Positions 29,458 through 53,125 of a DNA stretch of 64,000 bases are shown here, one piece after another. Made by a program: the position numbers and the translations under genes. This DNA comes from Bacteroidales bacterium (GTDB taxonomy: Bacteria; Bacteroidota; Bacteroidia; Bacteroidales; WCHB1-69). Where the stretch lies: positions 8,606 through 72,605 of the forward strand of contig JBLJBB010000048.1 of assembly GCA_047638115.1 (NCBI GenBank), written 5' to 3'. Below the pieces are notes generated by a model. It saw nothing but the letters and a program-made list of their open reading frames with translations, ran no database searches and was not told where the DNA came from. How positions within the stretch are numbered: position 1 is the first letter of the stretch; each line of letters opens with the position of its first letter.

Positions 29458-30082
29458 CATCCGTTTCCAGATTTTGAGGTTGATCAGTTTTGTGGGCTGG
29501 GAAAAACCTTTTATTAAAAATGATAATACTAAAAACACCGATGGTCACACAAGAATCTGCAATGTTGAAAATGGCAGGAAAAAAGTGAGATCCTCCCCAT
29601 AATGGGATCCAATCGGGAATTTTAAACAATGGAAAATAAAACATATCTACAACGTGTCCCATCATAAACGGAGCGTAGTCATAAATAATGCCATAAAACA
29701 GACTATCAATGATGTTGCCAATGGCTCCAGCAATAATTAAGGAGAAAGTTCCCACAATTACAAAGTCAGCTTTTTTATTTTTTATGATTTTAATTAGATA
29801 ATAGATAAGAAAGCTAACGACACCTATCCGAATGAGAGTAAGTAAAATTTTCCCCAAAGATTTTCCGAAGCTGATCCCAAAAGCCATCCCTTCATTTTCA
29901 ACAAAATAGAAGAGGAACCAGTTTCCAATAACGCTAAACATTTCACCAATTTGCATATTTGACTTTACCCAAACCTTAAGAAATTGGTCTGTGACAACAA
30001 ATAAGAGAATAATTGAAATTGATAAAATGGTGTATTTATTCCACTTTTTCACGCTATTTTTTTTCATTAACTTTAGCATCAA
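29435..30082 (-). CDS. lspA: Lipoprotein signal peptidase II
   Basis: ENEGMAFG and FNIADS motifs, four TMs. The start is uncertain (Met 1, 2 or 6). Confidence 0.85.
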   Translation of the reverse strand: MMLKLMKKNSVKKWNKYTILSISIILLFVVTDQFLKVWVKSNMQIGEMFSVIGNWFLFYFVENEGMAFGISFGKSLGKILLTLIRIGVVSFLIYYLIKIIKNKKADFVIVGTFSLIIAGAIGNIIDSLFYGIIYDYAPFMMGHVVDMFYFPLFKIPDWIPLWGGSHFFPAIFNIADSCVTIGVFSIIIFNKRFFPAHKTDQPQNLETDATPSQQE

Positions 30083-30437
30083 AACTTAGTGTAGCATGAG
30101 GAACACTTTTAAGTCTCTCTTTAGCAATAAGTTCACCTGTAACCCGGCAAATACCATAAGTTTTGTTTTCAATTCTAACCAAAGCCGCTTCAAGGTTTTT
30201 GATATATTTATCTAAACGACTTGCCAGTTTACTATTTTCTTCTTTTGATAGAACTTGGTTTCCCTCTTCAAGAATTTTAAAAGTTGGCGAAGTGTCAGTA
30301 GTGTCATTTCCTGCGTTGCTATACGCTTCTAAATAAACATCTAAACCTTTTTTGGCTTCTAGAATTTTGCCTTCAATCAAGATGCGGAATTCTTCTAATT
30401 CCTCATCTGAGTATCTGTTTACAACTTTTTCTGACAT
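30054..30437 (-). CDS. DksA/TraR-family regulator (Cys-poor variant)
   Basis: MSEKVVNRYSDEELEEF... coiled coil, then YGICRVTGELI...VPHATL. Only one Cys sits where CxxC...CxxC is usual. The tracked 206-aa ORF is trimmed to Met80 because its upstream part is antisense to the tRNA. Confidence 0.75.
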   Translation of the reverse strand: MSEKVVNRYSDEELEEFRILIEGKILEAKKGLDVYLEAYSNAGNDTTDTSPTFKILEEGNQVLSKEENSKLASRLDKYIKNLEAALVRIENKTYGICRVTGELIAKERLKSVPHATLSFDAKVNEKK

Positions 30438-30493
30438 GGCAGTGTTTTTATTGATTAGAGTGCAAAGATAATAAAAAATCAAATACAAAGTTG

Positions 30494-30501
30494 TATCTTT
30501 G
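30494..30501 (+). promoter_or_regulatory. -7 box (TAnnTTTG) upstream of tRNA-Arg
   Basis: tatctttg, 14 nt upstream of the tRNA 5' end. Confidence 0.5.
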
Positions 30502-30514
30502 CAGTTATAATTAT

Positions 30515-30588
30515 GGCTCCGTAGTTCAGCTGAATAGAACGTCAGATTCCGGTTCTGAAGGTCGTGGGTTTGAATCCCGCCGGAGTCA
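30515..30588 (+). tRNA. tRNA-Arg (anticodon CCG)
   Basis: Hand-folded cloverleaf. Acceptor GGCTCCG/CGGAGTC, D stem GTTC/GAAC, anticodon stem TCAGA/TCTGA with loop TTCCGGT, T stem GTGGG/CCCGC with loop TTTGAAT. 74 nt. Confidence 0.9.
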
Positions 30589-30602
30589 CAAAACCTCTTA
30601 AA

Positions 30603-30845
30603 ATGAGAAAAATAGCACAACTTTTTGCACAAATAATAGGAGGGGTTTTTATACTTATAATCCGAATTTATCAATTTGCACTTTCACCTTTTTTTGGTAA
30701 AAGTTGCAGATTTACTCCAACATGTTCGGTTTATGGAGTTGAGGCAATCAAAAAGCATGGGCCTTTAAAAGGGGGTTGGTTAACACTCAGAAGGATTATA
30801 AGATGTAATCCCTGGGGTGGTAGTGGGTATGATCCAGTACCTTAA
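30603..30845 (+). CDS. yidD: Membrane protein insertion efficiency factor YidD
   Basis: [34 protein letters not shown]... Start trimmed to the ATG at 30603, downstream of the tRNA. Confidence 0.9.
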
Positions 30846-30848
30846 AAC

Positions 30849-31739
30849 TTAATTCTCAAAATATCCAAAACGTTTCATCATTAAATCTTGATTTCTCCAA
30901 TCTTTTAAAACTTTAACAGAGAGTTCTAAATAGACTTGTTTGCCAAGAAATTCTTCAATAGATGCACGAGAATCAATCCCTAATCGTTTGATAGCGCTAC
31001 CTTTATTTCCAATCAAGATACCCTTTTGAGTGTCTCTTTCACAGTATAACATAGCACTCATCCGTATAATATCTTCACTCTCTTTAAAACTTTCTACAAC
31101 TACTTCAACACTATAAGGGATCTCTTTTTTATATAACAATAAGATTTTCTCTCTTATAATCTCAGAAATAAAAAAACGAACGGGTTTATCTGTTAATTCG
31201 TCTTTTGGAAAAAAAGGAGGAGAAATAGGTAATTGTTCTACAATCCTTTCTAAAAGTAAATCTATGTTGATTTTTTTAAGTGCAGAAATGTTGATCCATT
31301 CCGCTTTTGGTAATAGTTCTGACCAAAATGTTGTGGTTTCAAGAAGTACTTCTTTGGTTGATTTATCAACTTTATTTAATACCAAAAGTATGGGAATGTT
31401 TGTGTTTTGTAATCTTTCAATAATGGTTTCATTATAATTCTTTTCACCACCTTCTATCATATAAAGAATCAAGTCGGCATCCTTAAGTGCTTCATTTACA
31501 AAACGCATCATCATCTCCTGCATTTTATAAGCTGGACTTAAGACACCCGGCAAATCTGAATATACAATTTGAAAATCTTCACCATTCACAATCCCTTTAA
31601 TTCTGTGCCTTGTTGTTTGTGCTTTAGGAGTAATTATGGATAATTTTTCTCCAACAAGAAGATTCATGAGTGTGCTTTTACCAACATTTGGGTTGCCAAT
31701 AATGTTTACAAAACCGGCTTTATGTGTGTTTTCTGTCAT
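30849..31739 (-). CDS. era: GTPase Era
   Basis: GFVNIIGNPNVGKSTLMN, DLPG, NKVD, C-terminal KH domain. Confidence 0.95.
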   Translation of the reverse strand: MTENTHKAGFVNIIGNPNVGKSTLMNLLVGEKLSIITPKAQTTRHRIKGIVNGEDFQIVYSDLPGVLSPAYKMQEMMMRFVNEALKDADLILYMIEGGEKNYNETIIERLQNTNIPILLVLNKVDKSTKEVLLETTTFWSELLPKAEWINISALKKINIDLLLERIVEQLPISPPFFPKDELTDKPVRFFISEIIREKILLLYKKEIPYSVEVVVESFKESEDIIRMSAMLYCERDTQKGILIGNKGSAIKRLGIDSRASIEEFLGKQVYLELSVKVLKDWRNQDLMMKRFGYFEN

Positions 31740-31765
31740 TTTTTTGTTTTTATTTATTGAAGTGG

Positions 31766-32215
31766 TTATACATTATCAGATGCATACCACTCTGCAAAAG
31801 AGTTTTCTGTTTCTTTGAGTTTTAGAGAATATAAATGCACCTCTTTGGGAAGTATAGAACCAATTTTTTCAGAAAGATAACAAAGCATATTTTCTGTAGT
31901 AGGTTGAAAAGGTACAATGATTATTCTTTCGTAACTCTCTTTCAAAAGTGCAATTAAATCTGGATTTGTGGTTTCATTAAGCATCAAAGCATGATCCCAA
32001 ACGTCCACAATTTCTGTGTTTATCAATCTTTTTAAATCTGTAAAATCAATCAGCATCCCTTTTTTAGGGGAGAAAGAATCACTTACCGGGTTTCCAACAA
32101 CCGTAACTTCAAGATGGTAAGTGTGACCATGAATATTTTTACAAAGACCATCATAACTATCCAAAGCGTGTGCCATGGCATAGGTAAAAACTTTTGTTAA
32201 TCGAATTGTAGCCAT
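31766..32215 (-). CDS. queD: 6-carboxy-5,6,7,8-tetrahydropterin synthase
   Basis: CKNIHGHTYHLEV motif; 149 aa PTPS fold. Confidence 0.85.
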   Translation of the reverse strand: MATIRLTKVFTYAMAHALDSYDGLCKNIHGHTYHLEVTVVGNPVSDSFSPKKGMLIDFTDLKRLINTEIVDVWDHALMLNETTNPDLIALLKESYERIIIVPFQPTTENMLCYLSEKIGSILPKEVHLYSLKLKETENSFAEWYASDNV

Positions 32216-32217
32216 AA

Positions 32218-33300
32218 TTATTGAACAATTAATTTGGTTGATTTTATCCCTTCAAGATATTGAAAATGAACAATATAAACTCCTTTTGGAAGTTCGGAAA
32301 TATCTACCTTTGATGGATGATTCGTAACATCTACACTTTTTAATTTATTTCCTAAAATATCAAGTATGGAGAGTGTAATATTCTGATATTCAATTAAATT
32401 AATGTCGTAAAATAGATTTAATGTGGTCGTTGCAGGATTGGTAAAGGTGATTTTGGGGATCATATTTTCTGATTCTTGAATTGAAGATGGGAGAAACAGA
32501 TTCACGGAATCGGCTCCATATATTTTCCCAACCAATTCAGGATAATCAATAAATGGATTTCTATTCCCTTGTTTTTCGTAAACAGCATTGTTCCGATTGA
32601 TCTCTTTTTGACTCACAGGATCAAGGGTGTGCCATTGAATCAATAGAGCAACTGCCCAAGGTTTTAATGAGCCATTGGTATACATTGAAGTGGTTGCTTG
32701 TCCTAAATTTTTATCCATGTAACACACAGACATATAAAACAAAGCTCTGGCAAAATCACCTTTGTAGTCATCGATAGGTTCAAAAACGGTACCTGTGTAT
32801 CCAGAAACGGCACTTGAACCCAATTTTGAACCATTATCACTTGTCCAAGAGGCACTATTAACATCTCCAAAAGGATAATTACTTCTTCTGTTGTTTACAT
32901 ATCCATCAGTAGGAACGAGATGAAACAGATCACTGTACATAGGTGATGCATCATTGAACCAACTGGCAGGCACACTATGTTCCCGATTATAGCAATCTCC
33001 TTCACCAGAGTAACTTCCACATTGATTAGAAACGAAAGTAAATTCATAAGGGGGTGTTTGGTTAGGAATATCAGAATACATATCCCAGACTTTACCATTT
33101 GGTTTCACATCTGTAGTTTGAAAAGCGGTCCATAATCCAGCATAAGAAATGGTAGTATGGCTCTTTATGATATTATATAAAGCGTATCTCAACGCATAAC
33201 CTTTCTTATTTTGAGCATTAGTGTAGTATCCAGCGGGGATCTGACCAAAGATGTAACATGCAGAAAAAAAGAGTATTAAAGCAAAAAATAGTTTTTTCAT
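32218..33300 (-). CDS. Secreted endonuclease I family nuclease with T9SS C-terminal sorting domain
   Basis: NREHSVPASWF and GNRNPFIDYPE (endonuclease I). CTD ...GVYIVHFQYLEGIKSTKLIVQ. Confidence 0.8.
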   Translation of the reverse strand: MKKLFFALILFFSACYIFGQIPAGYYTNAQNKKGYALRYALYNIIKSHTTISYAGLWTAFQTTDVKPNGKVWDMYSDIPNQTPPYEFTFVSNQCGSYSGEGDCYNREHSVPASWFNDASPMYSDLFHLVPTDGYVNNRRSNYPFGDVNSASWTSDNGSKLGSSAVSGYTGTVFEPIDDYKGDFARALFYMSVCYMDKNLGQATTSMYTNGSLKPWAVALLIQWHTLDPVSQKEINRNNAVYEKQGNRNPFIDYPELVGKIYGADSVNLFLPSSIQESENMIPKITFTNPATTTLNLFYDINLIEYQNITLSILDILGNKLKSVDVTNHPSKVDISELPKGVYIVHFQYLEGIKSTKLIVQ

Positions 33301-33353
33301 AAGTTGTTTTATTTAACCTGCAAAAATACAAAATAATTTGCTATTACTTTTTT

Positions 33354-33500
33354 GGGCATTCCGGCACCATCCATCCCACAGGCCAGCCCTGCTGCCGTCG
33401 GGCTTGTTCCGGGGTTCGCTTCGCTCCCGTACTTCGCTGCACTTCACTTCGTTCGTTCCAGCTCGTACCGCCTACGGCGCCCTCCACATCCCTAATGCAA
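33354..33500 (+). repeat. G+C-rich interspersed element, copy R2
   Basis: gggcattccggc...gccgtcgggcttgttccggggttcgcttcgctcccgt...ccgcctacggcgccctccacatccctaatgc. Alignable by eye with R1, R3(rc) and R4(rc). Confidence 0.85.
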
Positions 33501-33503
33501 AAG

Positions 33504-33698
33504 ATGTTAAGTTGCTCTTTTAATAAAACCTTAGAGAACCGCGAAGGATTTCTTCAGGTAAAAGGTGGAAAAGTTTGATGAAGTAACGGAAAACACTTTA
33601 ATGAAGTACAAAAATTTAATTCCAGAAGCTCAGTCAGTCATCATTAAAGGAGCAGCTCACATGACGATGCAAGATAATCCAGGAGAGAACAATGCAGC
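33504..33698 (+). repeat. 195-bp perfect direct repeat, left copy
   Basis: Base-for-base identical to 39031-39225, compared by eye over all lines. Confidence 0.9.
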
Positions 33699-33726
33699 AA
33701 TTTCATCTTTTCTAGTATTGGATTAA
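33504..33726 (+). pseudogene. Alpha/beta-hydrolase remnant, copy A (lacks start, carries the internal-deletion junction)
   Basis: 33504-33698 is identical to 39031-39225. The tail encodes ...IPEAQSVIIKGAAHMTMQDNPGENNAAISSFLVLD*. Confidence 0.8.
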
Positions 33727-34110
33727 AAAACTATATTAGAGATGGCGCTGCCACCCTCTCCAATTTGAATATGTTTCGTATCGAAGAGCCGATGCTAAGA
33801 AAAATGAAGAGTGAAAAATGTTTAGATTTTTTTTTAAATAAAAATTAATTCGTTTTCATTTGCGCATTAGAGACTAATAATTTTATTCTAAAGAGTTTTA
33901 ACCGCAAAGTTCGCAAAGAAATAAGCCATGAATTCAAGAATTAAAATTAGTATTTAAAATTTAGCAATTGTGCAAATTATTTTATAGTCTATCATTTGTG
34001 TGATAAAAATCGGCTTGGTTCTAAGAAAACAGAAATCGAATATTCAACAATTTGAATATTAAAACTAAAAAAAAACAAACAACATACAATTGATAGACCA
34101 TAATTCGAAG

Positions 34111-34141
34111 GACCACGGACTACGAACTACGGACTACGGAC
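34111..34141. repeat. Heptamer tandem array GAC(T/C)ACG x ~4.4
   Basis: gaccacg gactacg aactacg gactacg gac. The same unit recurs at 40707-40737. Confidence 0.85.
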
Positions 34142-34165
34142 ACAAAATTAACAAAATACAAAACT

Positions 34166-34193
34166 GATAGCCGATAGCTGACAGCTGAAAGCC
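34166..34193. repeat. Heptamer tandem array GA(T/C/A)AGC(C/T) x4
   Basis: gatagcc gatagct gacagct gaaagcc. Confidence 0.8.
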
Positions 34194-34228
34194 CTTTAGC
34201 CATTCGCCCTTAACCTTGCGCCTGCTTT

Positions 34229-34406
34229 GCGTTAGGGATTTGAAGGGCGCCGAAGGCGGTGCGAGCTGGAATGAGCGCCGCTTTTCAATTGGTGATTGGA
34301 TGATACTTGTTTAAGCGAAATGGAGCGAAGCACGGGAGCGAAGCGCACCCCGGAAAAGCCCGACGGCGGTGGGTGGGATTGTGGAAGGATGATCGCCGGA
34401 ACGCCC
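34229..34406 (-). repeat. G+C-rich interspersed element, copy R3 (inverted)
   Basis: The reverse complement reads gggcgttccggc...atcccacccaccgccgtcgggc...cgcttcgctcccgtgcttcgct...caccgccttcggcgcccttcaaatccctaacgc. Confidence 0.85.
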
Positions 34407-34425
34407 ATATAATAAAAAAAAAGAT

Positions 34426-34433
34426 TATTTTTG
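34426..34433 (+). promoter_or_regulatory. -7 box (TAnnTTTG) upstream of the 481-aa gene
   Basis: tatttttg, 35 nt upstream of the ATG at 34468. Confidence 0.45.
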
Positions 34434-34467
34434 CACTTAGAAATATTACCTTAAAAAACTAAACAAA

Positions 34468-35913
34468 ATGGCTAAAAAACAATCAATTCTGTACGAAAAG
34501 AATTCTAGTCCTGAAAGCTATATTAAGACTAGATCGAGAACCATTCCCATTTATGAAACATATATCAATTACGGATGGAAGGAAGATGGGTATGCATCAA
34601 TATTTATCTCACGAAAACATTCGAATGGAAACTTTACATTGGTTATATATAATGTTGATATTTTGTGTGTAGGTGTTCAGGACACTTATTATGCCTTTAA
34701 TATTACTGATTCTAAATATAGAGAGATCCTTGAAAAAAGAAGAAAAGACGTTGAACTAGAAAAAATCGAATATGTTTTAGCCCATAATATCATTTATGGA
34801 GCTGTTGAATATGCTGAAAGTCTGGGGATACCACAATACAAAGATTTTAATAGAATAACTAAATATTTCTTAGAAGAGGATTCAGAGGATATTGAACTTA
34901 TTGAAATAGAGTTTGGTCGTGATGGAAAACCTTTCTTTATTGGTTACGATTTTTACAACCCTATTCAGATTCAAAATATAATCAAACAACTTGAAAAATC
35001 AGTGGGTGTAGGTAATTTTGATTTTATGCTTGAAGCAGATTTTGATGAAGATGAAGAGTTGGAGGATGAAGAGAATGAAGATGTTGATGATGACGAGTAT
35101 GAAGAGATGGATGATGATGTGGATCAAGAAAAGATTAATGAAAAAAACGAGTATTATAAACAACTCACTCCTAATGAGCGGGCTGAATTGTTTTTAAATT
35201 TAATAAATCAAGAGGATGTCTCACCTCACAAAGATCATATGGAGAGTATTTTATTACTTACTAACACCATTTATGATTATGATCTAACAACTAAAGAACA
35301 GAAGGAATCCCTTATTTCAAAATGGAACCATGATTTGAATATTCAGATAGACGATGGTGTACTCGTTGAATCAATGCAATTGAGTCCAAATGATGACTTG
35401 GATCATTTTTTAGACATCGTAGATCTGATTACTGTTGAATTGGAATCGGAAGAGGAAAAAGTGAGTTCAAACGTAAAAAAATTGGTTAAGAAACATCTTG
35501 ATAATCCCTATTTCTGTTATTTTGATACAAAAATATCTGAAAAAGAGGGAGCTGGTTCAAGATATCACAATAAATTAAATAAATATTGTTCGCAGTTTCC
35601 TGATTATCCATTGCTAAAAATTGAACATTTTAGAGCACAATTTAGGAAAGGAATAAAACCAGATATTCAGGAACTATTACCAAGTAAAATATTTTATGGG
35701 AAGGAAGCGATCACATCCTTTGAAATGTATCAATATCTGTTAGTAAAAATGATTTCTGAGTGTCCGCCACATGAGTTTAATTCTTTAAGTGCCCTAGAGG
35801 AGTGGGTGTTATCATTGCCTCTTCAAGAAGAATATGTAGTGAAGTATTTGATGCTCAGTAAATTGCTAAAAATGGAATATTTACTAATCCATCTTGACCC
35901 CGAAGAAGAATAA
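34468..35913 (+). CDS. Hypothetical protein with a central poly-acidic linker
   Basis: 481 aa with an EADFDEDEELEDEENEDVDDDEYEEMDDDVD tract between two globular-looking halves. No motif recognised. Confidence 0.6.
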   Translation: MAKKQSILYEKNSSPESYIKTRSRTIPIYETYINYGWKEDGYASIFISRKHSNGNFTLVIYNVDILCVGVQDTYYAFNITDSKYREILEKRRKDVELEKIEYVLAHNIIYGAVEYAESLGIPQYKDFNRITKYFLEEDSEDIELIEIEFGRDGKPFFIGYDFYNPIQIQNIIKQLEKSVGVGNFDFMLEADFDEDEELEDEENEDVDDDEYEEMDDDVDQEKINEKNEYYKQLTPNERAELFLNLINQEDVSPHKDHMESILLLTNTIYDYDLTTKEQKESLISKWNHDLNIQIDDGVLVESMQLSPNDDLDHFLDIVDLITVELESEEEKVSSNVKKLVKKHLDNPYFCYFDTKISEKEGAGSRYHNKLNKYCSQFPDYPLLKIEHFRAQFRKGIKPDIQELLPSKIFYGKEAITSFEMYQYLLVKMISECPPHEFNSLSALEEWVLSLPLQEEYVVKYLMLSKLLKMEYLLIHLDPEEE

Positions 35914-36045
35914 ACAAATGAAAATTTTGACTAGAGACAAGGGACTAAAGATTAGGAATATGGATAACAACAATTTTTTTAAATGAGATATATAAAATTA
36001 GGTGCCAGTTGATCACTAAAATGTTTAAAATGAAATGGTTTTATT

Positions 36046-36726
36046 ATGAAAATTCTTATTATTGAAGATCAAGCTGAACTTCTTGATTCAATTTATAATG
36101 CATTAACGAAAGAAAATTTTATTTGTGAAATCGTTGAGACAAAGCGAAAAGCTGAATATAAGATATATACATTTGATTATGATATACTTATTGTGGATAT
36201 TAATCTCCCCGATGGTTCAGGATTAGATATTATAAAACAAATAAAAAACATAAATAGTCGTGTTGGAGTAATTATTATTTCTGCCAGAAACTCTTTAAAT
36301 CATAAAATTGAAGGATTGGAAATAGGTGCTGATGATTATATTACAAAACCTTTTGATATGTCAGAATTGATAGCTCGGGTTAAATCATTGATTAGAAGAC
36401 GTAAGTTTAGTGGTGAAGAGCGGGTAACCTTTGGAAATATTACTATAAATACTTCAAAAAGAGAGGTTTTTGTTGATGAAATATTAGTGGATCTTACTAA
36501 AAGTGAATACCAAATATTGCTATTTTTCTTTTCAAATCCTAATAGAGTCATCTCTAAAGAAACCATAGCAGAACATATTTGGGGAGATAATATGGATATC
36601 TCTGATTCTTTCGACTTTATTTATTCCCATATCAAAAATCTAAGAAAAAAAATTGTTCCCAAAGGGGAAGTAAATCCTATAAAAGTAGTATATGGTATTG
36701 GTTATAAATTTGAAACAATCATTTAA
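36046..36726 (+). CDS. OmpR/PhoB-type response regulator
   Basis: MKILIIEDQ...DILIVDINLPDGSG receiver. Winged-helix C-terminus ...VYGIGYKF. Confidence 0.9.
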   Translation: MKILIIEDQAELLDSIYNALTKENFICEIVETKRKAEYKIYTFDYDILIVDINLPDGSGLDIIKQIKNINSRVGVIIISARNSLNHKIEGLEIGADDYITKPFDMSELIARVKSLIRRRKFSGEERVTFGNITINTSKREVFVDEILVDLTKSEYQILLFFFSNPNRVISKETIAEHIWGDNMDISDSFDFIYSHIKNLRKKIVPKGEVNPIKVVYGIGYKFETII

Positions 36727-37953
36727 ATGAAACTTTTAACGAAAACCAACCGGTTGTCATTTATTTGGATCATTCCTGTTATTATTATAGGAAGTTTATT
36801 TTGTTATTATATGATTCAATATATAGTTTACGAAGAAGCTGATGAATATTTGAAATATGAAATGAATCGAATTGTAGCTTATTATAATGAATTTGAGGAT
36901 CTTCCAGACAATCATTCAGTTGTTACTATAATTGATGATTTAAAATATGATAAACCTAAATTTAAAGACACTTTGATCTTAGAAACAGAAGATAATGAGA
37001 TGGTTCCTTATCGAGAATTATACTTCACAATACAACATAAAGGGATCTATAAAACCATATTATTAAGACATTTACTGGTTGGGAACGACGATATTTTTGA
37101 AGGTACAATATTTATTATTATTGGTTTAATTTTACTGATTACAAGTGCATTTTTATTCATGACGAATTACACCTCTCAAAAAGTGTGGAAACCTTTTTAT
37201 GATACTTTACACAAAATTGTAGGATATAAAACCAACGATTCCATTCCAAATTTCGAAAAAACATCAATTGATGAATTTAATAGTTTAAATCAAACACTTG
37301 AGAACTTACTAAATAAAATCCAGAGTGATTTTAAAAGAACCAAAGAGTTCAATGAAAATGCATCTCATGAGTTACAAACACATTTATCTGTAATTAGGGC
37401 AAATTCAGAATTGTTATTAAATGATGCTGATTTTAAAAATCATCAAATTATTGAAAAGATTTTTCAAACAACCCTTAAACTTTCAAGAACTCAAAGTTCT
37501 TTGTTGTTGCTAAGTAAAATTGGTAATCAAGAGTTTAGTAATCAAGATCGGGTAAATTTTAAAGAATCTATTGATTCTTCTTTAGCTCTTTTTATGGAAT
37601 TAATTCATATCAGAAAGATTAATTTAGAACTTTCTCTAAAAGATTGTTTTACAATAATTGATTCTGGATTAGCTGAAATTTTGATCAATAATTTAATCAA
37701 AAATGCTGTTAAACACAATATTGAAGGTGGGTTTATCTCAATATCTACCACCACCAACACAATCTGTATAGAAAATAGTGGAAACTATTATACACAATTT
37801 CCAAATCAACTTATGGAGCGGTTTCAAACTGGATACCAAGGAAATATGGGTATAGGGTTGGCGATTGTTAAACAAATTTGCGATTTATATAACTTTAAGA
37901 TCTTCTATAATATATCTGAGAATAATGTTCATCGTTTTGAAATTATTTTGTAA
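36727..37953 (+). CDS. Sensor histidine kinase
   Basis: Two TMs, H-box NASHELQTHLS, N-box LINNLIKNAVKHN, G-box GNMGIGLAIV. Abuts the regulator gene. Confidence 0.88.
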   Translation: MKLLTKTNRLSFIWIIPVIIIGSLFCYYMIQYIVYEEADEYLKYEMNRIVAYYNEFEDLPDNHSVVTIIDDLKYDKPKFKDTLILETEDNEMVPYRELYFTIQHKGIYKTILLRHLLVGNDDIFEGTIFIIIGLILLITSAFLFMTNYTSQKVWKPFYDTLHKIVGYKTNDSIPNFEKTSIDEFNSLNQTLENLLNKIQSDFKRTKEFNENASHELQTHLSVIRANSELLLNDADFKNHQIIEKIFQTTLKLSRTQSSLLLLSKIGNQEFSNQDRVNFKESIDSSLALFMELIHIRKINLELSLKDCFTIIDSGLAEILINNLIKNAVKHNIEGGFISISTTTNTICIENSGNYYTQFPNQLMERFQTGYQGNMGIGLAIVKQICDLYNFKIFYNISENNVHRFEIIL

Positions 37954-38073
37954 AAAGAAGAAATTCAGAATTTCTACAAAATCATAGTTTACTTTTGTCC
38001 CATAAAGATTGAAAACAATCGAGGAGGTTACTGAAAATCCTAAAAAGAGTAAGACAAAAATAAACAAATAATC

Positions 38074-38499
38074 ATGAAAAAACTATTTTTAATTTTAACC
38101 ACGATTATCCTTTTAACAGGATGTGAAAAAGAAACGATTATTCAAGGCAATCAAGTTCCTGAAAAAATTAAAACCTATTTGGAAACCCATTTTTTAAATT
38201 ACTCTGTTTTGCAACTACTTGAAGATAGAGAAGGGTTTAATTTAACATACGATGTTACCTTAGAACAAGGTTATTTTCTTGAATTTAACAGGAAAATGGA
38301 AATTATTGAAGTCACAGGAACACAAACTATTCCACATTCTGTAATTCCATCTGTTATTTTAACTTATGTTCAAACTCATTTTGTAGAAGAATCTATACTC
38401 TCTTGGGATTTAAGTGATAGAATTCAAGAAGTAACTTTAGATAATGGATTGCAATTGGAATTTGACAAAGAGGGAAATTTTTTAAGAATTGATAACTAA
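38074..38499 (+). CDS. PepSY-like (DUF2874-type) lipoprotein
   Basis: Lipobox LLTGC. Two repeats of the P..I..Y....F...........Y.V.L..G..LEF pattern. Confidence 0.6.
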   Translation: MKKLFLILTTIILLTGCEKETIIQGNQVPEKIKTYLETHFLNYSVLQLLEDREGFNLTYDVTLEQGYFLEFNRKMEIIEVTGTQTIPHSVIPSVILTYVQTHFVEESILSWDLSDRIQEVTLDNGLQLEFDKEGNFLRIDN

Positions 38500-38505
38500 A
38501 AAACT

Positions 38506-38862
38506 ATGAAAAAAATAATTTTAATAATCAGCGCATTTTTATTCATTCAAATGGGTTATGGGCAATATGTAGGACCCAAAAGCACGAATAAAACATTTAC
38601 GGTTAAAGAAGTGAGGGATAATGGTGCCAAATTAGATCGATCAGATCAGCAAGTTAAATTAAAGGGATTTATTATTTCTCAAATCAATAACAATACTTAC
38701 GAATTTAGAGATTCAACAGGAATCATTAGAGTAGATATAAAACCGTATTTACTTCAAAATAAAAAATTTGATGATAAACTGGAGATCACCATTATCGGAG
38801 AGGTTGATTATGATCTTTTAGAAGGAACGGAGATCGATGTTGATCAAGTGATATTCCCTTAA
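38506..38862 (+). CDS. YgiW/YdeI-family bacterial OB-fold (BOF) periplasmic protein
   Basis: Signal peptide. FTVKEVRDN..., NNNTYEFRDSTGIIRVDI, EITIIGEVDYD. Confidence 0.7.
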   Translation: MKKIILIISAFLFIQMGYGQYVGPKSTNKTFTVKEVRDNGAKLDRSDQQVKLKGFIISQINNNTYEFRDSTGIIRVDIKPYLLQNKKFDDKLEITIIGEVDYDLLEGTEIDVDQVIFP

Positions 38863-38891
38863 TTTTGAGGGAATATCACTTGATTTATTTT
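38843..38891 (+). terminator. Strong terminator hairpin overlapping the BOF gene stop
   Basis: Perfect 17-bp arms atcaagtgatattccct (38843-38859) / agggaatatcacttgat (38868-38884), followed by ttatttt. Confidence 0.7.
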
Positions 38892-38942
38892 GTAAGGGAA
38901 AAACGATTTTTAGCGTAATTTTTGAAACTTGTAGTTTTTATG

Positions 38943-38950
38943 TATATTTG
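38943..38950 (+). promoter_or_regulatory. -7 box retained upstream of the hydrolase pseudogene
   Basis: tatatttg, 21 nt upstream of the ATG at 38971. Confidence 0.4.
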
Positions 38951-38970
38951 TGGGTTAAAAAGCTCATTAT

Positions 38971-39250
38971 ATGAAAAATCTGAAATTTCAAATCTTTAAA
39001 TTGTTTATTATGATTTCATTATTAGTTTCAATGTTAAGTTGCTCTTTTAATAAAACCTTAGAGAACCGCGAAGGATTTCTTCAGGTAAAAGGTGGAAAAG
39101 TTTGATGAAGTAACGGAAAACACTTTAATGAAGTACAAAAATTTAATTCCAGAAGCTCAGTCAGTCATCATTAAAGGAGCAGCTCACATGACGATGCAAG
39201 ATAATCCAGGAGAGAACAATGCAGCCATATCCTCTTTTATGGGTAAATAA
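38971..39250 (+). pseudogene. Alpha/beta-hydrolase (proline-iminopeptidase-like) pseudogene, copy B, with large internal deletion
   Basis: The ATG opens the lipoprotein-like MKNLKFQIFKLFIMISLLVSMLSCSFNKTLENREGFLQVKGGKV, then TGA. A different frame continues EVTENTLMKYKNLIPEAQSVIIKGAAHMTMQDNPGENNAAISSFMGK* (catalytic-His C-terminus). About 200 codons of core are missing. Confidence 0.8.
39031..39225 (+). repeat. 195-bp perfect direct repeat, right copy
   Basis: Identical to 33504-33698. Confidence 0.9.
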
Positions 39251-39339
39251 TTTTAATAAAAATCTTTTATAGTAAATTGAAAAAGTGATAATCAACTATC
39301 ACCTTAATTGGCTCATGATCACATTAGCTTATTATTCCG

Positions 39340-39347
39340 TATTTTTG
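39340..39347 (+). promoter_or_regulatory. -7 box upstream of the UPF0597 gene
   Basis: tatttttg, 33 nt upstream of the ATG at 39380. Confidence 0.45.
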
Positions 39348-39379
39348 CAGAAAAATTTCTTCTATCTAATTTTTGATTT

Positions 39380-40705
39380 ATGACGTCTGAAAGAATTGCG
39401 CAAATTATACAACTTGTTAAGAACGAAGTGAAACCAGCTCTCGGGTGTACCGAACCGATTGCAGTGGCTCTAGCTGTAGCAAAATCTTGTGAAATCATGA
39501 GAGAAAACGGCCACAATCCTGAGTTTCTTGAGGTGGAAGTGAGTGCCAATATTTTGAAAAATGGGATGGGAGTGGGGATCCCTGGTACCGGTATGGTTGG
39601 GCTCGATATTGCAGCCGCTTTGGCCATGGTGTGTGGTAAAACTGAGTATAACCTCGAAGTACTGAGAGAGATCAATCACGAGGCAATTGTTAAAGCACAA
39701 GAGATTGTCTCCTCGGGCAAAGTTTCCATCGCAATGGCTCAGACTACAAAGAAACTGTATATAAATGCGATTGCAAAAAATCAAAACCACACAGCTTCAA
39801 CCATCATCCAGGATCAACACGATAAAATTACCTATTTCGATTTTGATGGATCCATTTTGTTTAATGATTGCTCGGGAAGCGTAGAGAAAAATCACTGTAA
39901 ACTTCACGAAAAAGAGGAGTCGAATGCCATTCTGGATCTCAAATTGGATGTTCAAACCATCTGGGATTTTGTACATGAAGTGGAGTATAAAGAGATAGAT
40001 TTTATTTTAGAATCTGTGGAGCTTAACAAAGCACTCGCCAAAGAGGGAATTAAACATGAGTATGGGTTACAAGTTGGAAAAACCATCCATACAAATATCC
40101 ATAAACATATTTTAGGGTTTGGGTTGCTCACCAATTCTATGGCCATGACTGCTGCGGCATCGGATGCCAGAATGGCGGGAAGTATTTTGCCTGCGATGAG
40201 TAATACCGGAAGTGGAAATCAGGGAATTACGGCAACTTTACCAGTGGTAGCTGCCTCGGAAACCTTTTTAAGCTCTCAAGAAGAGTTAGCCAGAGCGTTG
40301 ATGTTGAGCCATTTGGTTACAATTCATATCAAAGGGCAACTGGGCAGATTGTCGGCATTGTGTGGCGCTGTTGTTGCTTCCATTGGATCTGCTTGCGGTA
40401 TTGTGTATCTGGCAGAAGGGAACTACGAACAGGTGTGTTATGCCATTAAAAATATGATCGGAAACATGACGGGGATGGTGTGCGATGGGGCAAAAATTGG
40501 TTGTGCCCTTAAAGTGGCCTCAGGGGTATCTTCTGCAGTTCAATCTGTTTTGTTAGCTATGGACAATATATGCATCTCCGAAAATGATGGGATTATTGAT
40601 CGCGATATTGAAAAAACCATTAAAAACCTTGCCAAGATTGGCTCCACCGGGATGCAGGAAACAGATGATATGATTCTGAAAATTATGGTATCGAAGTTGA
40701 ATTAA
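39380..40705 (+). CDS. UPF0597 / YhaM-like protein (serine-dehydratase-alpha-like; putative L-cysteine desulfidase)
   Basis: 441 aa. VKPALGCTEPIAVALA near the N-terminus, SNTGSGNQGIT, CDGAKIGCALK. Size and motifs match the YhaM/CdsB-type family as I recall it. Confidence 0.7.
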   Translation: MTSERIAQIIQLVKNEVKPALGCTEPIAVALAVAKSCEIMRENGHNPEFLEVEVSANILKNGMGVGIPGTGMVGLDIAAALAMVCGKTEYNLEVLREINHEAIVKAQEIVSSGKVSIAMAQTTKKLYINAIAKNQNHTASTIIQDQHDKITYFDFDGSILFNDCSGSVEKNHCKLHEKEESNAILDLKLDVQTIWDFVHEVEYKEIDFILESVELNKALAKEGIKHEYGLQVGKTIHTNIHKHILGFGLLTNSMAMTAAASDARMAGSILPAMSNTGSGNQGITATLPVVAASETFLSSQEELARALMLSHLVTIHIKGQLGRLSALCGAVVASIGSACGIVYLAEGNYEQVCYAIKNMIGNMTGMVCDGAKIGCALKVASGVSSAVQSVLLAMDNICISENDGIIDRDIEKTIKNLAKIGSTGMQETDDMILKIMVSKLN

Positions 40706-40706
40706 G

Positions 40707-40737
40707 GACTACGGACTGCAGACTACGGACTGCGGAC
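40707..40737. repeat. Heptamer tandem array GACT(A/G)C(G/A) x ~4.4
   Basis: gactacg gactgca gactacg gactgcg gac, starting 2 nt after the stop codon. Same unit as 34111-34141. Confidence 0.85.
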
Positions 40738-40788
40738 ATGTAAATATTTGAATAATAGCCAAATAGAAACACTATTCAATTTATTTTT

Positions 40789-40816
40789 CATTATTCACTA
40801 TTCATTATTCATTATT
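40789..40816. repeat. Heptamer tandem array CA(T/C)TATT x4, abutting R5
   Basis: cattatt cactatt cattatt cattatt. The reverse-complement array lies at 53126-53160. Confidence 0.85.
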
Positions 40817-40817
40817 T

Positions 40818-41028
40818 GGGCGTTCCCCTTTGGCTGCACTCTATTCAATTCACAACACTATATAAAATAAGGAGCGTCGCTGGCCAAAGGGTCGGCCTTT
40901 CGCTTCAAGTCCGCAGGTAAAAGCCTAGTGACTGCAAAGTCGTAAAAGTAGCTCACAAGTTCGCTCTTTTACTCCTTGCATCACTACGACTTTTACCTTT
41001 GCGGGCTTTCACGCTTTCGGCCTAACGC
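40818..41028 (+). repeat. G+C-rich element R5 (family termini, divergent hairpin-rich interior)
   Basis: Starts gggcgttcc and ends cctaacgc like R2-R4. The interior has a 9-bp stem 40826-40834/40883-40891 and a ~90-nt imperfect hairpin 40912-41004. Confidence 0.75.
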
Positions 41029-41030
41029 GA

Positions 41031-41047
41031 AAAAACCTTCGGTTTTT
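41031..41047 (+). terminator. Hairpin with T-run at the inner end of R5
   Basis: aaaaacc ttc ggttttt. Analogous to the hairpin at 52923-52944 next to R4. Confidence 0.4.
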
Positions 41048-41252
41048 GAATAAAAAGAGAATAACAAACAATAAATCTTGATCACAAAATGAAATTTTTA
41101 TAGAATATTTTTTGTAATAAGATTAAAAATATTCCATTTTTAAATACTGATTTTTACAAGGTAAATAAAAAATATTAAAGACTTTTATTATTTTGTAGCC
41201 CATATACTTAAAAATAATTTCAAAAAAACTTGACAATTTGAATTTTTTGTTG

Positions 41253-41260
41253 TACTTTTG
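41253..41260 (+). promoter_or_regulatory. -7 box upstream of the Type I R-M operon
   Basis: tacttttg, 5 nt upstream of the ATG at 41265 (near-leaderless). A ttgaca-like hexamer lies at 41230-41235. Confidence 0.45.
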
Positions 41261-41264
41261 TAGA

Positions 41265-41843
41265 ATGATTACTAAAGAAAATATTTTGAAAACATTAATA
41301 AAGGAAATCACAAACATTCAAACAGGATTATTTGCAAAACCATCCGGTTCGGGTGATTTGGTTTATCTGCAATCCAAACATTTTGACGAATCTGGTCAAC
41401 TGCTTGCTGTTTTACATCCAGACCTTAAATCTATTAATATTTCTGAAAAACACCTATTAAAAGAGGGTGATGTACTTTTTGCTGCTAAAGGGAATAAAAA
41501 TTTTGCTACCGTTTTTGAAAACCATAATGAAGCAGCTGTAGCTTCAACCTCTTTTTTTGTTATTAGAATAACCGACAAAAAAATAGCACCCCATTATTTA
41601 GTATGGCTTCTTAATAGTCACTCTATTCAAAAAGAATTGAAAGGTCAGGCATTAGGAACTTCAATTCTTTCCATATCAAAACAAGTCTTAGAAAATTTAG
41701 AAATTTTAGTTCCAAGTATTGAAACACAAAAAATTATTCTACAAATTACTGAACTTCGAAATAGGGAAAAAACTTTGAAGCAAAAAATTGAAACACTTAG
41801 AGATAACCAAATTCAAAAACAAATTTTTAATATAATAAAATAA
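41265..41843 (+). CDS. hsdS: Half-size (single-TRD) Type I R-M specificity subunit
   Basis: 192 aa. One target-recognition domain, then a conserved helix ...LENLEILVPSIETQKIILQITELRNREKTLKQKIETL. Start trimmed from the tracked TTG at 41238 to the ATG behind the promoter box. Confidence 0.7.
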   Translation: MITKENILKTLIKEITNIQTGLFAKPSGSGDLVYLQSKHFDESGQLLAVLHPDLKSINISEKHLLKEGDVLFAAKGNKNFATVFENHNEAAVASTSFFVIRITDKKIAPHYLVWLLNSHSIQKELKGQALGTSILSISKQVLENLEILVPSIETQKIILQITELRNREKTLKQKIETLRDNQIQKQIFNIIK

Positions 41844-41845
41844 AT

Positions 41846-43408
41846 ATGATGACTAAAATAACTCAGAAAGAGATTAACGATGCTGTTTGGAAAGCGTGCG
41901 ATACCTTTAGAGGAAGTATTGATCCCAGCGTTTACAAAGACTATGTTCTTACTATGCTTTTTATCAAATATCTTAGTGATGTTCATGATGATAAAATGGA
42001 AAGCTACTTAAAAAAATATGATGGTGATATAGAACGTGCTAAAAGAGCCATGCAACACGAAAGATTTCTAGTTCCGAATCAAAGTCATTATAAATTTTTG
42101 TATGAACATCGCAATGAAGCCAACATTGGAGAACTGATCAACATAGCACTTACCGACTTGGAAGAAGCCAATCGTGAAAAACTATATAGTGAAGATGGAG
42201 CAGGAATTTTCCAGAATATAGATTTTAACAGTAGCAAACTGGGTGAACCCAAAGACAAAAACCAACGTTTGAAAACCCTTTTGATCGATTTTAAATCGGA
42301 TAAATTGGACTTACGTCCTTCCCATTTGGATGGAAACGACATCATTGGAGGAGCTTACATGTTCTTGATTGAAAATTTTGCCAGTGATGCAGGAAAAAAA
42401 GCGGGTGAATTTTTTACCCCAAAAGAAGTTTCTACCCTTATTGCCAAGCTTACCAAATCTAAACCAGGTTCACGCATTTGCGATCCAACTTGCGGATCAG
42501 CTTCACTCTTGATTAAAGCCGGTGAAGAGGTAGGTTCAGACAATTTTTCACTCTACGGACAAGAAGCCAACGGAAGTACATGGGCTTTAGCGGTTATGAA
42601 TATGTTTTTGCATGGTTTTGATAATGCAACCATTCGTTGGGGCGATACCATTCGCAATCCAAAATTGAAAGAAGGTGATACTTTAATGAAGTTTGATACC
42701 GTTGTGGCAAATCCACCATTTTCATTAGATAAATGGGGAAAAATTGAAGACAAAGAGGGAGACAAAACAACCATAAGTTATGACCCTGAAACCGATAAAT
42801 ATAATCGTTTTTGGAGAGGTGTTCCACCCAAAAGCAAAGGGGACTGGGCATTTATCAGTCACATGATTGAAACACTGAATGAGCAAGGAAAAGCGGGTGT
42901 AGTAGTACCACACGGTGTATTGTTTCGTGGCAGTAGTGAAGGACGGATTCGTCAACGTACCATTGAAGATAATTTACTTGAAGCTGTGATTGGGCTTCCT
43001 TCTAATCTATTTTTTGGTACAGGTATTCCCGCTGCCATTATGATCTTTAACAAACTAAAAAGCAGTAATAACGTATTATTTATAGATGCCAGTAAACAAT
43101 ATGAAAGTGCTAAAAACCAAAACAGACTCCGCGAGGGTGACATTGAACATATTGTAAACACCTATCGTGATTTTTCATTAGGTAATTTACAAGTAGGGGT
43201 AGCGGAAGAAAAATTCAGTTATGTGGCAACTTTCGAGGAGATACAAGAAAACGATTTTAATTTGAACATTCCCCGTTATGTGGACACCTTTGAAGAGGAA
43301 GCCGAAGTGGACATTGCTGCGGTGCAACAAGAGATTGAAAAGCTTGAAGAGGAATTGGTACATGTTCAGAATGAAATTGAAGTTTATTTAAAGCAATTAA
43401 TAAAATAG
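41846..43408 (+). CDS. hsdM: Type I R-M N6-adenine DNA methyltransferase
   Basis: HsdM_N-like start, FFTPKEV, DPTCGSASLL (motif I), VVANPPFS (motif IV). Confidence 0.93.
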   Translation: MMTKITQKEINDAVWKACDTFRGSIDPSVYKDYVLTMLFIKYLSDVHDDKMESYLKKYDGDIERAKRAMQHERFLVPNQSHYKFLYEHRNEANIGELINIALTDLEEANREKLYSEDGAGIFQNIDFNSSKLGEPKDKNQRLKTLLIDFKSDKLDLRPSHLDGNDIIGGAYMFLIENFASDAGKKAGEFFTPKEVSTLIAKLTKSKPGSRICDPTCGSASLLIKAGEEVGSDNFSLYGQEANGSTWALAVMNMFLHGFDNATIRWGDTIRNPKLKEGDTLMKFDTVVANPPFSLDKWGKIEDKEGDKTTISYDPETDKYNRFWRGVPPKSKGDWAFISHMIETLNEQGKAGVVVPHGVLFRGSSEGRIRQRTIEDNLLEAVIGLPSNLFFGTGIPAAIMIFNKLKSSNNVLFIDASKQYESAKNQNRLREGDIEHIVNTYRDFSLGNLQVGVAEEKFSYVATFEEIQENDFNLNIPRYVDTFEEEAEVDIAAVQQEIEKLEEELVHVQNEIEVYLKQLIK

Positions 43409-43410
43409 AA

Positions 43411-44969: not shown

Positions 44970-44981
44970 TAAAAATTACAC

Positions 44982-46283: not shown

Positions 46284-46298
46284 TTTAAAAACATAAAT

Positions 46299-46856: not shown

Positions 46857-46867
46857 AATTTAAAATT

Positions 46868-48601: not shown

Positions 48602-48755
48602 AATTCTCCAAAATATGGAAATCGTAAATAATTTAAATTCTCCAAAACAGATATTTATTTCTCCAAAATCATATACTAAATTTGTTTATTATGTTGTATA
48701 ACATTTATTTAAAAATTTATAATAATTCTCCAAAACAGGATTTCTATTCTCCAAA
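48582..48755 (+). promoter_or_regulatory. Six direct ATTCTCCAAA(A/G) repeats arranged as three pairs with 21-bp spacing
   Basis: Copies start at 48582, 48603, 48637, 48658 (TTTCTCC variant), 48724 and 48745. The first lies in the last codons of the upstream gene. Confidence 0.6.
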
Positions 48756-48893
48756 GAGGATGAAAACCATGCAGGATTCAATTCTCTGTATTGGATAATT
48801 TAGTATCTAAAAAATGGAAGAATTGAAAATATAGGGAGTTTTGTAAACCAAAATGGTCTCTTAAAAAGTAAAATTGAAAAAATTTAAGAGAGA

Positions 48894-53122: not shown

Positions 53123-53125
53123 AAA

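Follow-up and report, generated by a model that had tools for sequence, protein, structure and literature searches.

A perfect 195-bp direct repeat of hydrolase pseudogene fragments at a variable Bacteroidales locus

Genes and repeats of the locus

The window (the whole stretch of DNA analysed, 64,000 nucleotides) contains two fragments, here called copies A and B, of a lipoprotein hydrolase gene of the proline iminopeptidase family, recognised by alignment with intact 314/315-aa orthologues (G005 and L040). The features of the region are as follows.

32218-33300, reverse strand: left flank, core gene for a secreted endonuclease I carrying a T9SS sorting domain
33322-33502, reverse strand: R2, copy of a dispersed intergenic G+C-rich repeat that lies in the opposite orientation to R3 and forms inverted repeats I1/I2 with it
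33504-33726, forward strand: copy A, hydrolase pseudogene, codons 21-44 joined to ~265-315 (alignment with L040 and G005)
33504-33698, forward strand: 195-bp repeat of copy A, exactly identical to 39031-39225
33572-33577, forward strand: deletion junction of copy A with AGTTTG microhomology (orthologue alignment)
33727-34225, no strand: 'rep', a non-coding patch of several dispersed repeat modules and heptamer arrays
34226-34430, forward strand: R3, second G+C-rich repeat copy, always directly upstream of the 481-aa gene, sister lineage included
34468-35913, forward strand: 481-aa acidic protein of unknown function; core at the locus, mosaic between strains
36046-38862, forward strand: accessory cassette RR-HK-PepSY-BOF (Pfam, NCBIfam), made up of the next four genes
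36046-36726, forward strand: OmpR-type response regulator (Pfam, NCBIfam)
36727-37953, forward strand: histidine kinase (Pfam, NCBIfam)
38074-38499, forward strand: PepSY-like lipoprotein (Pfam, NCBIfam)
38506-38862, forward strand: BOF/YgiW-YdeI-type OB-fold protein (Pfam, NCBIfam)
38935-39030, forward strand: native hydrolase head, in copy B only (36 bp upstream, ATG at 38971, codons 1-20)
39031-39225, forward strand: 195-bp repeat of copy B; the reading frame from the N-terminus ends at TGA 39103-39105
39099-39104, forward strand: deletion junction of copy B; L035 and L049 run here into the undeleted gene middle
39226-39313, forward strand: tail B, comprising 15 nt from the hydrolase 3' end (3 synonymous differences), then MGK* and 60-odd bp
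39380-40705, forward strand: right flank, SDH_alpha/UPF0597-type gene (SDH); core in the genus, mosaic between strains

The 481-aa protein belongs to a family that is widespread in Bacteroidota and has no match in Pfam, NCBIfam, PADLOC or the PDB. Pfam finds only the two-component system, PepSY_like and BOF between the repeats, with no genes for replication, integration or mobilisation. The sequence-only reading took the enclosed 5.3 kb to be accessory throughout, and this is right in part. The RR-HK-PepSY-BOF cassette is absent from the sister lineage L052/L053 and from L040, and the accessory part (cassette plus hydrolase) is ~99.9% identical across strains whereas the flanking genes differ by 4-13%; the 481-aa gene and R3, by contrast, are core, and occupy the same place in L052/L053 and L040. 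Between structural types the cassette has at most 3 differences in 3.1 kb, and G003 carries a 79% identical cassette in a different context. The 481-aa and SDH genes are mosaic between strains, which points to frequent inter-strain recombination at the locus.

The hydrolase remnants and the limits of their identity

Pairwise comparison of 33504-33698 with 39031-39225 gives 195 matches in 195 bp, in direct orientation, confirming base for base what had been read from the sequence alone, and the repeat occurs exactly twice in its own 2.91-Mb, 121-contig assembly. To the left there are 0 bases of identity between the copies. To the right 15 nt can be aligned with 3 mismatches (GCA ATT TCA TCT TTT versus GCC ATA TCC TCT TTT), all of them synonymous and at third codon positions (AISSF in both; p=0.022 for all three falling there by chance), and beyond these there is no similarity, copy A ending LVLD* and copy B MGK*. 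Because three substitutions would all fall within the last 15 of 210 bp with p ~3.6e-4 under uniform mutation, the discontinuity between identity and divergence is real, and a tract of identity bounded by divergence inside a longer homologous block is the pattern of gene conversion. The data support the 33698/39225 boundary as a real recombination breakpoint joining two different 3' ends of the same gene, so that the earlier description of the repeat as a footprint of homologous recombination holds. That the tails evolved under selection had been concluded from the same synonymous differences; the three mismatches are indeed synonymous, but the homologous tail is just five codons, very little sequence for such a conclusion.

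Relative to G005 and L040 both copies have the same 665-bp internal deletion, which removes codons ~45-264, shifts the frame and has two AGTTTG microhomologies as its endpoints; the presence of this junction in both repeat copies had also been read correctly. Kinship with the proline iminopeptidase family (TIGR01250) is evident from the alignment of the fragments at both ends with the G005 and L040 proteins, the G005 orthologue scoring 269 bits against the model (cut-off 167.65). The GQSWG nucleophile elbow lies within the deleted codons, so neither fragment is an intact member, and a Pfam search with the fragments alone matched no model. By themselves the remnants are a pseudogene scar with no function to discover.

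Copy A lacks codons 1-20 and has no start codon or promoter of its own. It ends in the native C-terminus ...AISSFLVLD* (tail A), and tail A and the DNA downstream are collinear with L040; because this layout is identical to L040 and the FL.D* ending is as in G005, tail A is the ancestral 3' end. Copy B as a whole (38971-39250) has a native head and a foreign 3' end. Its codons 1-20 encode a lipoprotein signal peptide (MKNLKFQIFKLFIMISLLVS) and the head aligns collinearly with L040 575-745 and the N-terminus of G005; the 60-odd bp of tail B have no relatives anywhere besides two contigs of the same layout.

Layouts in other strains

Comparison with ~30 public contigs of the locus reveals at least five layouts, which coexist in wastewater and groundwater communities. 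The sister lineage L052/L053 has endonuclease I-R3-481aa-SDH, without either hydrolase copy or the two-component cassette. Relative to this empty site, only 35919-39361 and 33344-34227 are extra in the window. The commonest layout (11 contigs) has a single deleted hydrolase gene with the head of copy B and tail A, followed by rep-R3-SDH.

Contig L036, from another sample and free of Ns, has both copies on one contig in the order tail A-rep-R3-481aa-cassette-head-repeat-tail B-SDH. Contig L035 (15 kb, 98.6% identical) runs endonuclease-R2-copy A-...-BOF-head and then into 225 bp of undeleted hydrolase middle; its linkage is unambiguous because the stretches shared between its copies (74 and 121 bp) are shorter than the assembly k of 141. 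The R2|copy A junction recurs in further samples (L054, L063 and L064). In L035 and L049 copy A is deleted and copy B is not, and 3.4 kb of either contig shows only 2-3 differences from the window; the copy-B deletion is therefore recent. Both contigs end at the same base after codon 119, neither reaching the 3' terminus of the undeleted copy B, and the database contains no matching protein fragment.

Repeat site 123 is A in both copies of the window and G in both copies of L036. The two copies thus agree within each genome at a site that is polymorphic between genomes, as in concerted evolution, in the two genomes with both copies on one contig. Among the contigs all four combinations of this site (A/G) with tail type (A/B) occur.

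In the window's own run, Logan unitigs are interrupted exactly at the repeat boundaries (34783-39060; start 39196), the behaviour expected of a repeat truly present in two copies. One unitig of this run also ends at 34783, a repeat-free position in the genome, and this hints at strain variation.

Origin of the identical tract

The perfect identity is best explained by a recent RecA-type non-reciprocal homologous exchange between the copies (ectopic gene conversion or gap repair), which we consider probable. In the simplest version a double-strand gap in copy B would have been repaired with copy A as template; the exchange would have given one copy the 665-bp deletion of the other and halted with 15 bp of homology still to go, sparing the older, diverged tails. 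Because two very close strains have copy B undeleted and copy A deleted, the shared deletion junction cannot be just an old feature at which a crossover happened; most likely one copy received it from the other. We infer that the direction was A to B, although the inter-strain recombination that is clearly frequent here could have brought an undeleted copy B back in. For the origin of copy A our preferred guess is an insertion, anchored by homology at R3 on one side, of the 3' part of the deleted allele that most strains have as a single gene; other routes that would account for it are a tandem duplication between R3 copies with later trimming and the re-insertion of an R3 x R3 circle. A simple tandem duplication by unequal crossing-over was rejected: the border before copy B is native, with an uninterrupted signal peptide like that of L040 and G005, and the new join is at the outer left edge (R2|codon 21), not between units.

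The deletion may have arisen in the commonest, single-gene layout. Copy A would then be a recent partial copy of that gene, and part of the identity would reflect how recent the duplication is, not later conversion. A stronger form of this explanation dispenses with conversion: a young partial copy of an already deleted gene would have been set upstream of R3 by repeat-mediated or illegitimate recombination, tail B would have been swapped in later from a diverged allele beside SDH, and the identity would mean youth only. The single deleted gene of the commonest layout does have only 0-3 differences from the window repeat, its tail A-rep-R3 is at least 99% like copy A of L036 (22-bp unit included), and mosaicism between strains is rampant. 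We nevertheless think this unlikely, because A,A versus G,G at site 123 with the same junctions still demands conversion or parallel mutation, the strains with an undeleted copy B demand an extra event, and tail B has no relative elsewhere that could be its source. Still less probable to us is that the hydrolase and RR-HK-PepSY-BOF genes form a non-autonomous cassette moving between strains and positions around the 481-aa gene by homologous recombination at the R repeats. This would involve R3 x R3 excision and then re-insertion or one-sided-homology capture, with the R elements as portable recombination sites of a 'swap slot' system and the 195-bp repeat as a re-insertion scar later homogenised by conversion.

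The sequence-only reading had favoured Campbell-type integration, in which a circle of head-repeat-tail A-rep-R3-481aa-cassette enters an endonuclease-R2-repeat-tail B-SDH chromosome by a single crossover and the identity marks the crossover partners. The involvement of homologous recombination stands and the layout formally equals such a product. The expected circle junction, copy-B head plus repeat plus tail A, is present in 11 public contigs, whose direct-orientation R3 copies could excise such a circle; however, in the four that reach far enough (L044, L048, L060 and L061) the junction is chromosomal and runs into R3-SDH, not into the 481-aa gene. The recipient that it needs, a single-copy R2-repeat-tail B-SDH form without the 481-aa gene, had been expected as the empty site in relatives and is not found among the ~30 locus contigs from public assemblies; the empty relatives are endonuclease-R3-481aa-SDH, and L052/L053 have no repeat. 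The enclosed segment includes a core gene and encodes no replication or integration functions, each partner would have needed the same rare 665-bp deletion beforehand, and strains with copy A deleted and copy B undeleted are left unexplained, so that we now regard this integration as distinctly improbable. An assembly artefact, in which one true copy is threaded twice by the contig (from a strain mixture, or a chromosome plus its excised circle), had been named as the outcome that would overturn the repeat. The assembly is a draft in 121 contigs that probably derives from a community sample, the repeat is longer than common k-mer sizes, and the unitig break at the repeat-free position 34783 hints at strain variation; but the same order of parts in L036, from an independent sample, and in L035 with its unambiguous k-mer linkage, together with recurrence of the tail A-rep-R3-481aa adjacency and the R2|copy A junction in several samples, makes it very improbable indeed.

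Comparison with known systems

Ectopic gene conversion and concerted evolution are familiar among dispersed bacterial paralogues such as rRNA operons and the tufA/tufB pair. Among papers on the subject, PMC8022953 treats conversions between the rRNA operons of E. coli and PMC6053082 concerted evolution in prokaryotes. As in those systems, copies within a genome are more alike than orthologous copies between genomes, the identity tract ends within a homologous region, and no mobile-element machinery is needed. Unlike them, the hydrolase partners are dead fragments of only 74+121 bp that are not selected for function, and the tract transfers a 665-bp deletion and so inactivates a gene instead of maintaining one. 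The textbook case of pseudogene-templated inactivation by conversion is human CYP21A2/CYP21A1P, where likewise a defective donor passes its lesion to a neighbour by non-reciprocal homologous exchange; the hydrolase case differs in being bacterial, in its much shorter homology, in that its direction is inferred, and in that the recipient may already be damaged elsewhere, the undeleted contigs ending after codon 119. With Campbell insertion-duplication the locus shares direct gene-fragment repeats that flank DNA, one without its 5' end, and that can loop out; it departs from it in the enclosed core gene, the missing recipient form, the lack of plasmid or phage functions and the strains with one copy deleted.

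Homology-facilitated illegitimate recombination during natural transformation is a candidate mechanism that would explain copy A. The term is used in papers on Acinetobacter baylyi (PMC3410848, PMC8116780). A putative likeness lies in the right side of copy A, which is seamless via rep-R3 into the 481-aa gene (the homologous anchor), and in its left end, truncated at an arbitrary codon and fused with unrelated DNA. That this left junction falls exactly at the end of a repeat element is unlike such events and may indicate another mechanism.

We regard the repeat pair as an ordinary, though well documented, instance of repeat-driven genome reshuffling. The locus is valuable because it documents, in nature and over multiple samples, how a bacterial locus is reshaped by short dispersed homologies: a two-component stress cassette stays ~99.9% identical over backgrounds whose flanking genes differ by 4-13%, and a dead, 5'-truncated fragment has apparently handed its deletion to a second copy. 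There is also a practical warning, in that MAG contigs crossing such repeats and the adjoining R elements are likely sites of strain chimeras or alternative resolutions.

The R repeats

The R2 family ends at 33498-33502 and copy A begins 1-2 nt on, so that the inner end of R2 adjoins copy A. R2 and R3 resemble REP/BIME/REPIN or MITE repeats: they are short, folded non-coding units rich in G+C that occupy intergenic positions, number in the tens per genome and lie at the borders of variable segments; they differ in having no Rfam family and in their phylum, Bacteroidota and not Proteobacteria. The segment 33300-34470 gives 166 HSPs in its own genome, with many partial and full R copies, and R3 alone matches 43 places, 12 of them over at least 150 bp. 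The neighbouring 'rep' patch has a 22-bp tandem-unit polymorphism near 33917, and copies of the R repeat are also present in the congeners G001 and G003-G006.

The 195-bp repeat and its boundary

A repeat search of window positions 30000-42000 finds a single long direct repeat, pairing 33504-33711 with 39031-39238, and these are the only two copies in the whole assembly (2.91 Mb, 121 contigs). Base-by-base comparison bears out the 195-bp identity and synonymously diverged tails described in the sequence-only reading: 33504-33698 and 39031-39225 match at exactly 195 of 195 bases, there is no identity leftward of 33504/39031, and to the right 15 further bases align with three mismatches before the sequences become unrelated. 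The mismatches (GCA/GCC, ATT/ATA and TCA/TCC) are all synonymous and at third positions (p = 0.022), and the frames end differently, as LVLD* in the tail of the left copy (tail A of copy A) and as MGK* in that of the right copy (tail B of copy B). With uniform mutation, the probability that all three substitutions would be confined to the final 15 of the 210 aligned bases is ~3.6e-4, and the boundary at 33698/39225 is therefore real. The divergence of the tails is genuine, but the further claim that they evolved under selection has a basis of just five codons.

Copy B opens with an ATG of its own (38971) followed by a lipoprotein signal peptide; past a TGA stop at 39103-39105, the reading resumes in the +1 frame as far as 39250. 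Intact orthologues of 314/315 aa are present in the congener genome G005 and in the metagenome contig L040, and the one in G005 scores 269 bits against TIGR01250 (cut-off 167.65), which identifies it as a hydrolase of the proline iminopeptidase family. Set against L040, both window copies are missing codons ~45-264 (665 bp), and with them the GQSWG nucleophile elbow; the deletion is flanked by two AGTTTG microhomologies and shifts the frame. R2, which precedes copy A, is a member, like its inverted counterpart R3, of a modular family of G+C-rich intergenic repeats; tens of copies are present in the window's own genome, the family occurs in congeners too, and Rfam contains no match to it. The 500 bp 3' of copy A are dispersed repeat modules too (rep). 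In this patch, at window ~33917, a 22-bp tandem unit (CGCAAAGTTCGCAAAGAAATTT) is polymorphic, with one unit fewer in the window and L063 than in L035, L036, L040 and all contigs with a single hydrolase gene. Left of the window, C48:3618-7522 contains three 133-bp copies at 1886-bp spacing, ~81% identical to window 33979-34111.

Layouts of the locus

About 30 contigs of the locus were gathered through exact-protein look-ups and two pattern scans, and were sorted into five layouts.

Layouts of the hydrolase locus, with contigs, identity to the window where given, and gene order. The endonuclease gene is the left flank and SDH the SDH_alpha/UPF0597-type right flank; 481aa is the acidic-protein gene, RR-HK-PepSY-BOF the cassette, and head the native 5' part of copy B.
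(i) Empty: L052 (NCBI MAG 'HGW-Bacteroidetes-19') and L053; 93-95%; endonuclease-~130 bp-R3-481aa-SDH-MutS
(ii) Outgroup: L040 and L042; ~84%; rep-R3'-intact hydrolase with tail A-rep-R3-481aa-DUF4402-SDH
(iii) Single dead gene: 11 contigs (L044, L046-L048, L055, L057-L062); 481aa-RR-HK-PepSY-BOF-head-repeat-tail A-rep-R3
(iv) The window's own: the window and L036, with L056 for repeat-tail B-SDH
(v) As (iv), with copy B undeleted for at least 225 bp beyond the junction: L035 and L049

Layout (i) is without the hydrolase, the cassette and the defence island. In layout (iii), SDH comes next in the four contigs long enough to show it, and Logan unitigs cross the repeat without branching. The GTDB species representatives are 72-80% identical with different neighbours on both sides, and provide no empty site.

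Several independent contigs and unitig breaks give good indirect evidence that the duplication in the window is real. Logan unitigs of run SRR27295040, which has the exact sequence, end at 39060 and start at 39196, 30 bases inside either edge of copy B, as expected of a k=31 graph at a true two-context repeat. L036, from another sample (6.1 kb, 98% identical, no Ns), reads repeat-tail A-rep-R3-481aa-RR-HK-PepSY-BOF-head-repeat-tail B-SDH. L035, from a third sample (15 kb, 98.6%), runs from Era-QueD-endonuclease-R2-copy A through to BOF-head and then into the undeleted middle of the gene; the stretches shared between its copies are just 74 and 121 bp, shorter than the assembler k of 141, and both copies are therefore linked unambiguously on one molecule. 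The junction of R2 with copy A is seen again in L054, L063 and L064.

Tail A is the ancestral gene end: its layout is as in L040 and an FL.D* ending is also found in G005. Tail B has no relatives in its own genome or in any fetched locus, and an exact-pattern scan of JGI metagenomes gave zero matches to it; the second scan, with the hydrolase 3' part, gave two short contigs. It varies among close strains (MGK* versus ISK*), as is expected of DNA free of constraint. A 12-mer (ATAAGTAAATAA) is common to tail B of L036 and the sequence after R3 in L044, which we judge compatible with chance, the DNA being A+T-rich. Derivation of tail B by a deletion from tail A to the R3 end was rejected because the sequences past the putative junction do not match.

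The undeleted copy B of layout (v) is cut short in both of its contigs: L035:14862 and L049:4396 end at the very same base, in different samples assembled with different k, 225 bp into the undeleted middle and with the last 300 bp identical. The coincidence points to another structural branch beyond codon 119. A search for its 3' end with the full-length hydrolase protein found nothing above 74% identity save the L040 type, a cluster look-up of the 119-aa fragment found no record in protein clusters, and a C-terminal 196-aa query found no close match or fragment of the 3' half in a collection of 15 billion proteins. Undeleted copy B probably has another lesion or branch. A 665-aa DnaG-like protein (P0235) in the small-ORF cluster is a clustering artefact and was ignored.

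Core and accessory DNA

The 481-aa gene and R3 are found in every layout, with the same flanking genes in L053, and are therefore core. The proposal that the DNA between the repeats is one accessory unit does not survive this observation. An empty site in relatives was also anticipated; L052 and L053 keep R3-481aa-SDH with neither hydrolase nor cassette, and the predicted loop-out product (R2-repeat-tail B) is absent among the ~30 contigs. The 481-aa protein belongs to a family found widely across Bacteroidota; it has no Pfam, NCBIfam, PADLOC or PDB match, and a role as a plasmid, replication or defence gene was discarded on that ground. In the 5' third of the window's gene (34568-34868) there are 13-32 substitutions per 100 bp relative to every other strain, including the 84% outgroup, and over its 3' 450 bp the gene matches L035/L036 exactly; this allele may be either a sharp mosaic or a hypervariable patch. 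A Logan unitig of SRR27295040 is likewise interrupted at 34783, a position that is not repeated in the genome.

The accessory DNA comprises two segments:
33344-34227, R2, copy A and rep
35919-39361, the cassette and copy B

Compared with the window, layout (iii) shows 3 differences in the ~3100 positions of cassette and hydrolase head, whereas the adjacent 481-aa gene is 91% identical and SDH 96.5% (87% in L044). Congener G003 has the cassette at 79% identity in another genomic context. Recombination has therefore carried the cassette recently into diverged backgrounds, and the genes that flank it are mosaics too. Cassette SNP trees do not resolve the structural types: 1.1 kb contains 5 variable sites, and no more than 3 differences occur across 3.1 kb.

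The G+C-rich SDH_alpha/UPF0597 gene (39380-40705) has orthologues in four congeners at 80-83% amino-acid identity and is present in every layout, and is therefore core rather than recently imported; among close strains it is a mosaic, with 4-7% differences and 13% in L044/L051. Just 5' of the PepSY-like gene, 38021-38055 (+) matches the Rfam DUF805b RNA motif at 33.2 bits (E 1.9e-6), below the gathering score of 35.6.

Origin of the identity between the copies

Over 3.4 kb, layouts (iv) and (v) are separated by only 1-3 sites. Both have a deleted copy A, yet copy B is deleted in (iv) and undeleted in (v). It is not credible that an identical 665-bp deletion arose twice independently, and the junction was therefore transferred through homologous exchange. 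At repeat site 123 the two window copies share an A and the two copies of L036 a G, and all four combinations of site 123 with tail type occur; thus no history works without one or more conversions, or else a parallel mutation. Mechanistically, break repair of copy B from copy A is simplest. A break in mid-copy B followed by resection would have been repaired with copy A as template, using homologous arms of 74 bp (left) and 121 bp (right) with loss of the middle, and the tract would have stopped at 39225, retaining the last 15 homologous bases of B.

We infer that transfer ran from copy A to copy B. The undeleted copy-B allele may instead have been re-imported, the locus being so recombinogenic, and the deletion may have originated in layout (iii), with copy A a partial copy of that allele; tail A-rep-R3 in that layout is at least 99% like that of L036 copy A. 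How copy A itself arose admits several accounts. It is cut on the left at codon 21 exactly at R2, starting 1-2 nt past the canonical R2 end, and on the right it passes seamlessly via rep-R3 into the 481-aa gene. Simple tandem duplication was rejected, the junction before copy B being native; three accounts fit, namely insertion by one-sided homology with R3 as the anchor, a tandem duplication between R3 copies that was later trimmed, and re-insertion of an R3 x R3 circle.

The two-copy arrangement behaves like ectopic gene conversion between dispersed paralogues. Bacterial rRNA operons, among other genes, are well-known cases of concerted evolution (PMC8022953 and PMC6053082). Pseudogene-templated inactivation, as found in eukaryotes, is a second parallel. 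The segment differs from a Campbell-integrated element in lacking an empty site, wholly accessory enclosed DNA and element functions. Recombination and diverged tails thus stand from the sequence-only reading, but integration of a 5.3-kb accessory segment as a circle does not. The interest of the case is mainly that it offers an unusually complete population snapshot of the locus.

Rearrangements around the locus

From 'TGCAAAAATACGAAATAAT...' onward, across R3, the 481-aa gene, SDH and MutS, L052 and L053 match without a difference, but their left flanks are not the same: in L053 the flank is the endonuclease gene, and in L052 it consists of GTP cyclohydrolase I, Lactamase_B and a 430-aa gene, all of which are located on contig C117 in the window's own genome. 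The point where their identity starts is either a rearrangement breakpoint or a MAG mis-join. An LPS/sugar-nucleotide cluster, whose first gene encodes a 258-aa NTP-transferase, adjoins the hydrolase in an L040-type strain (L041) and the endonuclease-I gene in G003 (L015), which tentatively points to an inversion or translocation, bordered by R repeats, in the hydrolase/endonuclease-I neighbourhood. The Type I R-M / SMODS-SLATT / AlbA_2 defence island at 40724-53156 is a strain-specific insertion; in L052/L053, L044/L051 and L056 the MutS gene (window 53157 onward) directly follows the SDH-like gene, and an R-type repeat lies at window 52942-53159.
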